Part shown: positions 58,801 to 62,217 of the stretch, in pieces | Layout: each line of letters begins with the position of its first letter | How positions within the stretch are numbered: position 1 is the first letter of the stretch | Assembly (NCBI RefSeq): GCF_041146345.1 | Contig: NW_027191414.1 | Coordinates: forward strand, 682,001 to 746,000 | Reading direction: 5' to 3' | Source: Neodothiora populina | Taxonomy: Eukaryota | Length of the DNA: 64,000 bases | Notes under the pieces: model-generated | Told to the model about the DNA's origin: nothing | What the model saw: only the letters and a program-made list of their open reading frames with translations | Database searches by the model: none | Made by a program: the position numbers and the translations under genes

Positions 58801-60093
58801 ACTCGTCCTACCGACCTTTTATTTACTTTTACTTTCGCAGCCTCTGGCAAGGCCGGGCCAGCATTGCGACGCAGAAACCCATGCTGTCCCGTGCGGAGCG
58901 CAGACGTCAAGATCAACAGGTCGAGGTCGGTCGTCTGATAGTCGAAGAGTACGGTGACCTCGCCGTGGACCTTTTCGCTGCATACGACAGGACCCTTCTG
59001 ATGGAGTTTCTGCGGTCCACGACTGCCTACACCTACGAGCGAGCATCCACTATCTGTGAACAGAAACACTATATCCCCGAGCTTGTCTATGTTCTGTCCA
59101 AGACCGGGCAGACCAAGCGTGCTCTGTTCCTCATCATCGGCGAACTGGGAGACGTGAGCCGGGCGATTTCCTTCACCAAGGAGAACCCGGATCTGTGGGA
59201 CGATTTGCTAGATTACAGCATGGACAAGCCGGCTTTCATAAGAGCATTGCTGGAGGAGGTGGGCACAGCCATCAACCCCATCACGCTCGTCCGTCGCATC
59301 CCAGACGGCCTCGAGATCGAAGGTCTGAGGGACGGCATCGGCAAGATGATACGAGAGTACGAGATCCAGTACTCCATCAGTGATGGCGTTGCAAAAGTGC
59401 TGCGGGGCGAAGTGGCCGCAGGCATGGACGCACTGCGAGCCGGCCAGAAGAAAGCGATCAAATTCGACATCGAGCACGACTTTGACGGGTCCGAGGAAGA
59501 AGCCGGCAGTGGGGGTGCGGGTGGGCAAGTAGAGATGTACGTCGAGGACGCAGGAGACCCCGAGTCATCGCACCCTCACGAGCTGGAAGAGGAGAAGACG
59601 CGAAAGGAGGCGCTCAAGCCCGGCCACTGTGTCGGGTGCAAGGACGCCTTCGACGAAGACGGTAAGGACCCTTTTGCTTTCCTACCTAATCACCATTCTC
59701 GCAATACTGACCTTCTCACTAGAAAAAGAAACCCTCGTCGGCTTCTCCTGCGGCCACGTCTACCACCTCTCATGCCTGCTGGACGCCACAGACGGCGTCG
59801 ACCAAGCCCTCATCGAAACCCTACAACAGGGCCAAAGCCACCATCCCACGAACAACAGACTCTCCGCCCCAGAAAACGACCTCGACGATGGAACAACACA
59901 ACAACCACAGCAGGCGCAGCAGCAGCAGACTCGAAGCGTCAAGGCCAAAGTCCAGCACGCACAACGCATCAAACAGGCTCTGAACAGTAACAGACAGAAC
60001 AGAGGCGCGGCGCGGAGAGAAGAAGAAGACGCCGATGCGGGCGGGGGCTGTGTGTTTTGTAGCAGTAGACTTGTGGACGAAGGCGCGAACTGA
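55884..60093 (+). CDS. VPS41: HOPS subunit Vps41 (WD-like N-terminus, clathrin repeat, C-terminal RING)
   Basis: EPKLKY, IATSSIDGHVCV, RPVNAVALSP, LWDDLLDYSMDKPAFI and CVGC...CGHVYHLSC...CVFC. Three introns. Confidence 0.92.
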
Positions 60094-60677
60094 GGCTGAG
60101 ACGAAAGACAAGTCGCTGTTGTTAATTGACTGATTAAGGGCCGTGTCACAGGGGCTGACGAGGGATAAGGGCTCTTCCTGCTTTCATGAGGCGAAGGAGA
60201 GCAAAACCGACCATGTGTATGTGCGTATATGTGTTGTGGATGGGTTCCGGATAGATGAAGAGATCCGAGCTGGGGTGGGAATAGTTGTGTAATTATATAT
60301 ATATATCCAGTTAAAACAGTCGAGATCTAATCGGATCTTCACATTGTCTTATCATTGCAGATCACAGTGGGGGATGCTTCTTCGAGATCTGCCAATTTTC
60401 CCACTCTCCTGCCATGTCACATAGACTGACGTTTCGGGATGTGAAAGCCAACAAGACCATGGTGGTCTGCCAAAAGCCATCAGAACGACTCGGTATCGCC
60501 ATTCACCATCGACGTGATATATGCGAATTGCACCATTATAAGAGCATGGAGATCAGTCTTGGAATATATACAATCCTATAATGGATTCCTCGGTCAGTTT
60601 TCCACACACATGATGTTTTGTAAGGCAAGTATCAGGTAACAAAACCGAGGTAATGCATGAATGCAAAAAAAGGGAGT

Positions 60678-60749
60678 TCAGAGTGTGAATAAAGTCTCAA
60701 CAGTAGTCTTCAGACAGGGATAACTGTTTGATTGGAAATTTCTCATCAT
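60678..60749 (-). ncRNA. snR38: Box C/D snoRNA, snR38-like (copy 3)
   Basis: Minus strand ATGATGA(C)...AACAGTTATCCCTGT-CTGA(D')...TTTATTCACACT-CTGA(D). The D' guide is complementary to the conserved LSU rRNA sequence ACAGGGAUAACUG. Confidence 0.85.
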
Positions 60750-60980
60750 ATAGCTTGTGAAAGCTCAAAGGGGATATAGGGTAGGTAAGATTAGAATAAC
60801 AAGGAGGACGAAAACGTACTGTGGTGGGCTTGTCCTTGCTCGATTTGGATGGAGATGGTCTCCTGTTCGTGACATGTCTGCCCTGAAGCTTTGCGCGTAG
60901 TCTATATTTCCAGGTCAGCTTTCATGATTGTTTAAGCAGTTGACGATGTGATCAGGGAAGTTTTAGTGTGGATGTGTGGG

Positions 60981-61051
60981 TCAGAGTGTGAATAAATTCT
61001 CAACAATAGTCTTCAGACAGGGATAACTGTTTGATGAAAATTTCTCATCAT
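60981..61051 (-). ncRNA. snR38: Box C/D snoRNA, snR38-like (copy 2)
   Basis: Same box C, D' and D and same guides as the other copies. Lies inside a GTAAGT...GCTGAC...TAG intron at 61106-60902. Confidence 0.85.
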
Positions 61052-61234
61052 GGTAGACACGAAAGGAATATGCAATTTCGAACGCTAGGTGAAAAGTGGT
61101 ACTTACGGCATAGACAGCATTGTGTTGCTGATCAGCGCATATTGACACGATTGCGTGTACAATCTGTGAGTTCCTCAGTCAGCTTCTACATCTGGTATTT
61201 CAAGATGGTAATGTATTCGAGGTGATGCAAAGGA

Positions 61235-61305
61235 TCAGAGTGTGAATAAAGTCTCAACAATAGTCTTCAGACAGGGATAACTGTTTGATAAAAGATTCTC
61301 ATCAT
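61235..61305 (-). ncRNA. snR38: Box C/D snoRNA, snR38-like (copy 1)
   Basis: Same boxes and guides. Lies inside a GTGCGT...GCTGAC...CAG intron at 61344-61164. Confidence 0.85.
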
Positions 61306-61621
61306 GGAAGCAGGAGGTGATTGCAAGAGATGGCGGAAACGCACCTATTGGGCAAAGGGGCCATGCCGATATCGAGTCTTCCTGTGCAAAGGGCCAACGC
61401 CGAGGCAGTCATGTGTTTCCGAACAACGGTGTGCGGTAGGGCGGCAAGTAATCAATGGGGCTTGGACTCGACAATCCACTGTCCACCCTGGCGCAGCTGG
61501 GGCCTCTCGCTTGTAGCTGATTACGAGGTGGCAGTCTCTCGACTAGACAGAGCGCGGCATTTCAATGGCAAGTGGTCGATAGACAGAGAGGATGAAAGGC
61601 AAAGGATATCTCTCCGGCATC

Positions 61622-62217
61622 TCAAGCACCGCCCTTGGGAGGAAAGGCACTTTCTCTCACTCGACCAGCCTTTTCGACGCGCACGAACTTGATCTGACCG
61701 AGACCAACCCATTCACCCTTCCACTCCTTCAGCTTGGCCAGGTTGTTGGCGTCTTGCATATCGGGCATCCAGAAGCCGTACTCGTACTCCCTCTGTTCGG
61801 TAGCGCGCTGCTGCTCGAGGAGGGTCTGCTTTGGGTTTGGGGGCCTGCCAGGGCGACGTTCGGCCCTGAGATCATCGAGAGTCTCGTTGTCGCGGTCGAG
61901 GTAAGAATTGATGGCCTCGTGGACCTTTTCATCAGACAAGGGCTCTTGGTCATCGGCAATAACATCGTGGAAATGAAGGACTCGGAGCACTGGAGAAGGG
62001 GGTGATCAGGTCAGTGATGGCCAGTAAAGAGACTCATGCGCCACTCACTGTGGGGCTCATTGTGCTTCTCTCTCAGAGCTCCCAGACGAGCGACCCGGTC
62101 GTCTCTGGCAACGGCACTTCGCAGACGGAGAGCATCTCTGCTGTTCTCGTGCAGCGCCGTCGTGTTGCCCTTTTTCTTGTTCACCCGCTTCTGCACCTTG
62201 TGGAACTTGGACGGCAT
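61622..62217 (-). CDS. TMA16: Translation machinery-associated protein 16 (pre-60S factor)
   Basis: MPSKFHKVQK...LHENSRDALRL...ERRPGRP...EYEYGFWMPDM...WKGEW. One intron at about 62048-61990. Confidence 0.85.

Follow-up and report, generated by a model that had tools for sequence, protein, structure and literature searches.

Three snR38-type box C/D snoRNA copies in consecutive introns behind TMA16 in Neodothiora populina

Why would a fungal genome carry the same guide RNA in each of three successive introns, and to which transcript would these introns belong? We examined these questions in a stretch of 64,000 nucleotides (nt) from Neodothiora populina (NCBI RefSeq assembly GCF_041146345.1, contig NW_027191414.1, positions 682,001 to 746,000 of the forward strand), hereafter the window, in which a first-pass annotation made from the letters alone had described a triplicated box C/D small nucleolar RNA (snoRNA) on the minus strand. 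The copies lie directly behind the coding region of TMA16. We consider it very likely that they are three intronic, spliced snoRNAs of the snR38 type; a single transcript hosted by TMA16 and the duplication route that produced the triplet are what we infer beyond this core.

A repeat search recovered a three-copy family of 79-nt copies, with spacings of 303 and 254 nt, and reading of the sequence placed in each copy the 71–72 nt unit that had been proposed from the letters. The three copies are the following:

61232..61310, minus strand: snoRNA copy 1 (box C 61305-61299, guide 61285-61271, D' 61270-61267, box D 61238-61235)
60978..61056, minus strand: snoRNA copy 2 (box C starts at 61051, box D ends at 60981)
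60675..60753, minus strand: snoRNA copy 3 (box C starts at 60749, box D ends at 60678)

On the minus strand each copy presents, in this order, box C (ATGATGA), the guide AACAGTTATCCCTGT, box D' (CTGA), a C'-like TGTTGA and box D (CTGA), and boxes C, D' and D and the guide were thus read in all three as the first-pass annotation had them. In its RNA form the guide is AAACAGUUAUCCCUGU; it is separated from box C by a short variable loop and followed directly by the D' CUGA, and a second conserved stretch sits between the C'-like UGUUGA and the box D CUGA of each copy. The consensus boxes of a box C/D snoRNA (box C RUGAUGA and box D CUGA) were found in 3 out of 3 copies, while the C'-like UGUUGA differs from UGAUGA by one mismatch. 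D' and C' did not vary among the three copies or across the 10 fungal relatives that were aligned in the correct orientation; the row of one further locus (L090) was on the opposite strand and was disregarded.

The core from box C to box D (71–72 nt) showed a pairwise identity of 66–68 out of 71 positions (93–96%) among the three copies. The intron flanks, aligned from the 5' and the 3' side across the three snoRNA introns, were only 33–59% identical, which bears out the description of the surroundings as largely unrelated sequence. Boxes C, D', C' and D and the 16-nt guide were invariant in all three copies, and none of the 7 variable core columns fell within any box or the guide (5 in the loop after box C, one in the spacer between D' and C', and one just after C'). 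The likeness of the three cores cannot be explained by chance. The contrast between flanks and cores, together with the invariant boxes and guide, indicates purifying selection on all three copies.

We then assigned the copies to a family. They scored 46.2 bits (copy 2), 43.7 bits (copy 1) and 41.6 bits (copy 3) against Rfam RF00213 (snoR38/snR38), whose gathering score is 45 bits, and the Rfam search thus returned snR38, the family expected in advance. The corresponding E-values on a 3-kb scan ranged from 8e-6 to 9e-5 (3.1e-5 for copy 1 and 9e-5 for copy 3), and the RF00213 relatives that we recovered from metagenome loci scored 44.7–63.9 bits. At Rfam gathering thresholds the whole window gave one match, snoR38 on the middle copy, and at E<=0.05 no other Rfam family was found in it besides Afu_328 (RF02403) on the same three copies. 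Membership in Afu_328 was rejected, as the copies reached 39.0–41.8 bits (41.8 for copy 3) against a gathering score of 70 in this narrow model; by their guide and length the RNAs are nonetheless homologues.

The guide of the window copies is the RF00213 family consensus, and in the complement of this guide, ACAGGGAUAACUG, the +5 rule for the D' element selects the middle G of the GGG. In yeast, the target of snR38 is 25S position 2815, as given in PMC8527467, and RF00213 is listed in PMC3511168 with plant snoR38Y at Gm2805, human snR38A at Gm4362 and yeast snR38 at Gm2812. Among filamentous ascomycetes, PMC2780460 describes Neurospora crassa CD23 as an snR38 homologue of 72 nt that lies in an intron and carries a D' guide for 26S-Gm2773, and its supplement row holds the same guide core, CAAACAGUUAUCCCU. 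Aspergillus fumigatus Afu-328 is given in PMC2377427 as 75 nt long, detected by northern at 75 nt, encoded in intron 2 of Afu6g04570 and assigned to Gm2792. Both published homologues are expressed intronic RNAs. By guide consensus, the +5 rule and these assignments, the target of the window copies would be a conserved G in domain V of the large subunit (LSU) ribosomal RNA (rRNA), equivalent to yeast 25S Gm2815 and the same nucleotide that had been named for this locus. Mature RNAs of ~75 nt would be expected from the copies.

All the intron signals that had been predicted around the copies were present, namely the donors at 61344, 61106 and 60819, the CTGAC branch points and the acceptors at 61164, 60902 and 60576. 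The motifs are canonical (GTRNGT..CTGAC..YAG) and define three introns:

61164..61344, minus strand: intron 1, 181 nt, GTGCGT..CTGAC..CAG, contains copy 1
60902..61106, minus strand: intron 2, 205 nt, GTAAGT..CTGAC..TAG, contains copy 2
60576..60819, minus strand: intron 3, 244 nt, GTACGT..CTGAC..TAG, contains copy 3

The distance from box D to the branch point A was 56, 66 and 84 nt in introns 1, 2 and 3, respectively, matching the earlier estimate of about 55–85 nt, and the distance from the donor to box C was 39, 55 and 70 nt. These distances between box D and the branch point are near the spacing that favours splicing-coupled assembly of the snoRNA-protein particle. The importance of this distance is also described in PMC2780460.

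We found the three introns removed in a 3601-nt contig (record 9) of a run, X2, that shares its sample with the genomic run X1; this sample is probably the source organism. The contig skips exactly 181, 205 and 244 nt, each skipped interval begins with GT and ends with AG when read on the minus strand, and the depth of X2 in bins of the intron interiors was zero. For intron 3 the read mapping placed the cut at 60574/60819, with a shift of +1 fitting equally well. All three predicted snoRNA-intron junctions are used, and the layout of one unit per intron holds as predicted. As one contig from one sample, record 9 speaks for the existence of the spliced form and not for its abundance. A third run, X3, contained just two short unspliced pieces (60068-60244 and 61187-61374) and was uninformative.

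In order to place the triplet among its relatives, metagenome contigs were scanned for the guide plus D', which yielded 107 loci, 80 of them with flanks. A homologue of eEF1-gamma was found on the snoRNA strand in 30 loci, and in 26 out of the 107 the snoRNA lay inside an eEF1-gamma intron, a call that was made when the snoRNA had the N-terminal part on its upstream side and the C-terminal part on its downstream side; Pfam EF1G/GST domains confirmed the host in L043, L078 and L003. The closest relatives of the window copies (L003, L043, L036, L029, L027 and L015; 88–98% identity over 54–85 nt) were all of this type, with one copy each. Yeast snR38 lies in an intron of TEF4 (eEF1-gamma) as well, and the 26 loci are consistent with this. 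By contrast with these 26 loci, TMA16 was the neighbour in none: a tblastn search of TMA16 and VPS41, the convergent gene at the other end of the snoRNA locus, against the 107 loci gave nothing at E<=1e-3 (the best value at E<=10 was 1.2). The TMA16-linked triplet is thus derived. In the closest relative of copy 2 (L020), Pfam gave no match on the two upstream open reading frames (ORFs).

Another host position was observed in 5 loci (L012, L014, L032, L038 and L075), which carry RPS25 upstream on the same strand (Pfam Ribosomal_S25, 94–95 bits). In one of them (L032, 2400-3230, minus strand) the snoRNA intron begins, by eye, ~330 nt after the RPS25 stop. These RPS25-downstream copies are an independent parallel to the TMA16 arrangement. 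Two or three copies per locus were found in L006, L030, L050, L069, L080 and L106, and in L031, L033 and L071; where inspected, their layout differed from that of the window triplet. One of these (L031) had the highest score on Rfam snoR38 of the loci scanned (63.9 bits). Two pairs of loci deserve mention. In L050 (1870-2130) and L006 (1370-1660), both GC-rich contigs (0.59), two snR38-type copies stand 224–257 nt apart in one stretch after a coding exon, which looks like an intronic cluster and not like one copy per intron. The snoRNA core of L078 (2236-3651, plus strand; eEF1-gamma host) is identical to that of L032 (RPS25 host); the two contigs come from the same metagenome data set and, if they belong to one organism, would be a second case of host duplication.

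The sequence of the relatives also varied in two respects. In four copies in eEF1-gamma introns (L036, L029, L015 and L026) AGAUGAA stands in place of the box C AUGAUGA, with the guide and the rest conserved. The stretch ATTCACACT upstream of box D was conserved among the three window copies and likewise at 8 relative loci with an eEF1-gamma host, and was replaced by other sequence in L078, L032 and L075. It could serve as a second guide or in an accessory pairing of the kind that was reported for snR38 (PMC3116282).

We found signs of one more copy in the genomic reads. Two long contigs of X1 (4893 and 3237 nt) break inside the snoRNA (window 60980-61051) and continue into unlike sequence, and short unitigs across the shared core had depths of ~60 and ~89, compared to ~30 for single-copy sequence. 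Based on the contig breaks and the raised depth, a fourth snR38-type copy probably exists elsewhere in the genome. Its form lacks one base at 60994, and its second conserved stretch then reads as in the eEF1-gamma copies of relatives, a weak hint that the fourth copy may be the ancestral eEF1-gamma copy.

Possible traces of how the triplet arose were found in the exons and in the introns. Exon 2 and the last exon begin alike (ATTGTACA and GATTGTATA), introns 1 and 3 resemble each other around the branch point (z 3.2), and directly behind box D intron 1 shares an exact run of 13 nt with the eEF1-gamma intron of L029 (z 5.7; 0 out of 200 shuffles). Of the 60 flank comparisons between window and relatives, this last one alone was clearly above shuffles and most were not significant, and we do not base the duplication route on it. 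Taken together, the like exon starts, the likeness of the branch regions and the 13-nt match suggest that the sequence was first copied, at the DNA or intron level, and that an intron-plus-exon unit was then duplicated in tandem.

We next consider the transcript that carries the introns. The gene upstream of them and the exonic parts of the locus are the following:

61622..62217, minus strand: TMA16 coding region, ATG at 62217, intron 61990-62048 (59 nt), stop TGA at 61624-61622, 178 amino acids (aa)
61345..61621, minus strand: interval of 277 nt from the TMA16 stop to the first snoRNA-intron donor, either TMA16 3' untranslated region (UTR) or first exon of the host
61107..61163, minus strand: host exon of 57 nt between introns 1 and 2
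60820..60901, minus strand: host exon of 82 nt between introns 2 and 3
60000..60575, minus strand: terminal host exon, in which 60000 is not a mapped 3' end

The identity of TMA16 was supported by Pfam PF11176 (Tma16; 118.1 bits for exon 2 and 26.1 bits for exon 1). Record 9 covers 61345-61989 unbroken and continues from there with the end of exon 1 of TMA16: its loose end matches the last 30 nt of this exon, so that the TMA16 intron is removed too. Four introns are thus removed in one contig, in which the host exons follow the TMA16 coding sequence without a gap. The loose part comprises 232 letters and, if colinear with the genome, would bring the end of the contig ~63 nt upstream of the TMA16 ATG. 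On the other side, the contig covers 60000-60574 and has 2009 more letters beyond 60000, extending ~2 kb into VPS41 (identified by Pfam); either the 3' ends of the last host exon and VPS41 overlap, or the assembly merged them. By eye, 61345-61621 showed nothing that was AT-rich or resembled a promoter or a poly(A) signal, the GC content over 61345-61600 was 0.57, and TATATA/TATAAT-like elements occurred only past the last exon junction, in the last exon. Because the contig is unbroken from the TMA16 coding exons and the interval holds no AT-rich element, the simplest reading, towards which we lean, is a TMA16 transcription unit that is extended at its 3' side, with the three introns in the extension.

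We propose that the three copies are working snR38-family box C/D paralogues that would guide 2'-O-methylation of the conserved LSU G, and that each would be freed from its own intron once this is spliced out and its lariat is debranched and trimmed by exonucleases. The three consecutive introns would belong to the TMA16 transcription unit, as part of an extended 3' UTR or of a read-through transcript, such that TMA16, a ribosome-biogenesis gene, may double as snoRNA host. The triplet would have come from local tandem duplication of an intron-plus-exon unit, ultimately from an ancestral snoRNA copy in an eEF1-gamma intron. That three copies amplify the dosage of the guide is pure conjecture. 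Taken as a whole, with TMA16 as host, we hold this explanation to be slightly more probable than not.

Several observations weigh against it. In terms of RNA structure, a conserved terminal stem is not present across the three copies in the Rfam alignment and the folds (a 4-bp external stem, GUGU/ACAC, was seen in copy 2 only), and the copies fold no better than shuffled sequences (z = +0.80, -0.80 and +0.78); a terminal stem is missing from many intronic snoRNAs. Copies 1 and 3 fall just under the RF00213 gathering score, by 1–3 bits. The junctions come from one contig of one sample only, and run X2 is labelled 'DNA?'; we took it to be cDNA because the contig is without four introns, including that of TMA16, and otherwise colinear with the genome. 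As the same contig enters the convergent VPS41, overlapping transcripts were merged at least once, and since contigs merge such transcripts, one molecule joining TMA16 to the host exons cannot be demonstrated from it. Three introns after the stop codon would be expected to expose the TMA16 mRNA to nonsense-mediated decay (NMD), an odd cost for a housekeeping gene. Finally, the flank homology to eEF1-gamma introns amounts to one 13-nt match in 60 comparisons between window and relatives.

The alternative that survives best is that the host is an independent non-coding gene of the UHG type, whose promoter would lie in the 277-nt interval behind the TMA16 stop and whose 5' end would overlap the TMA16 3' UTR. 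This would spare TMA16 the cost of NMD, and the assembly did merge neighbouring transcripts, as the contig shows at VPS41. Intronic snoRNA clusters in non-coding hosts of filamentous fungi, which the first-pass annotation had invoked, are indeed described in PMC2780460, where the multi-intron hosts of N. crassa clusters I-V have ORFs of 159–267 bp. In the spliced post-stop transcript of the window, the longest ORF is one of 100 codons that starts with ATG and stays in frame over all three junctions. Its length was not significant (at least 100 codons in 11.7% of 2000 dinucleotide shuffles), nor was its codon score of 0.121, which was matched by 8.4% of the shuffled ORFs of at least 60 codons (n=1231), and we therefore treat it as a chance ORF. 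What speaks against an independent host is the coverage of the contig, which has no gap from the TMA16 coding sequence up to the first donor, the composition of 61345-61621, with no visible promoter-like, AT-rich or poly(A)-signal-like element and with the TATATA/TATAAT elements only after the last junction, and the RPS25-downstream parallel in other fungi, which suggests recurrent hosting behind coding regions. We regard an independent host as a serious alternative, if somewhat less than an even chance. The earlier picture of an ORF-poor host whose exons are splicing scaffolds is only partly supported: the post-stop exons have no significant coding signal, but the contig is continuous with the TMA16 coding exons.

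Within the reading that places the introns in the TMA16 unit, a more specific version can be formulated, in which TMA16, the gene of a pre-60S ribosome-biogenesis factor, has captured a three-copy snoRNA array in its own 3'-UTR introns. Any transcript from which the snoRNAs are made would then have three exon junctions behind its stop codon and be a likely target of NMD, which would couple, or trade, TMA16 protein against guide-RNA output; we find this rather improbable as it stands. Equally doubtful is the generalisation that goes with it, namely that new paralogues, copied from the ancient eEF1-gamma intron, come to lie in spliced 3' extensions of genes with a role in translation, a route that would be recurrent to judge by the RPS25-downstream copies in other fungi. 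Should the introns truly be part of the 3' UTR, the making of snoRNAs would be tied to mRNAs of the translation machinery that are prone to NMD. In human, both snoRNA host genes and introns in 3' UTRs have been linked to NMD (PMC5238794). We found no host relation between TMA16 and snoRNAs in the literature by title or abstract, and no description of fungal snoRNAs in 3' UTR introns.

It is very unlikely that the copies are decaying or neutral snoRNA pseudogenes that are passively spliced, the working gene being the probable fourth copy. Such a view could draw on the one member per genome that PMC5824354 reports for most fungal snoRNA families, on the scores of copies 1 and 3 below the Rfam gathering score, on the missing conserved terminal stem and on the commoner sequence form of the probable fourth copy. 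The cores at 93–96% identity against flanks at 33–59%, and the boxes and guide that are intact in 3 out of 3 copies and avoided by the variable columns, argue for selection on each copy; this pattern is not expected otherwise. Least probable of all is that the spliced transcript encodes a protein of 100 aa and the snoRNAs lie in the introns of a small protein-coding gene, since the 100-codon ORF, even though in frame over all three junctions and with a codon score above the off-frame 95th percentile (-0.023), is not significant against shuffles in length or score (11.7% and 8.4%), lies ~1.1 standard deviations under the coding-window mean (0.292 +/- 0.151) and has a first-position GC of 0.42 compared to 0.57–0.65 in the neighbouring genes.

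The main value of the locus is a clean, RNA-supported annotation, to which it adds an instance of host switching, from an ancestral eEF1-gamma intron to behind TMA16 here and to behind RPS25 elsewhere. N. crassa is thought to suppress duplicates by repeat-induced point mutation. Most fungal snoRNA families are described as single-copy, with sporadic paralogues (PMC5824354; single-copy also in PMC2780460), and thus a homogeneous triplet with a probable fourth copy is an uncommon gain of paralogues in a filamentous fungus. The family, the target and hosts with one snoRNA per intron in filamentous fungi are already known (PMC2780460). What is new is modest: that the triplet is homogeneous, that it stands directly behind TMA16 and that the host has changed from eEF1-gamma. 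In all, we see the locus as a genuine, if rather ordinary, instance of snoRNA gene duplication.

Compared to known systems, the window copies share with Saccharomyces cerevisiae snR38 (RF00213) the box C/D architecture, an identical D' antisense element, the conserved LSU target and the intronic location, whereas the yeast gene is single-copy and the locus studied here has three, one in each of three successive introns behind TMA16. The filamentous-ascomycete homologues N. crassa CD23 and A. fumigatus Afu-328 (RF02403) are likewise intron-encoded with a D' guide and, unlike the window triplet, are reported as single intronic genes (PMC2780460, PMC2377427). With the UHG/gas5-like hosts of N. 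crassa the locus has in common short exons, one box C/D snoRNA per intron, fungal splice signals and short ORFs, but clusters I-V, as described, carry different snoRNAs each, while the window locus carries the same snoRNA three times (PMC2780460). Its host also abuts the protein-coding TMA16 and is contiguous with it in the RNA contig, unlike the N. crassa clusters. The mammalian SNORD116/SNORD115 arrays consist of repeated intron-plus-exon units, each with a copy of one box C/D snoRNA, and comprise tens of copies of imprinted, orphan guides. The fungal locus, in contrast, is compact, and the guide that it carries three times is a canonical one for rRNA.

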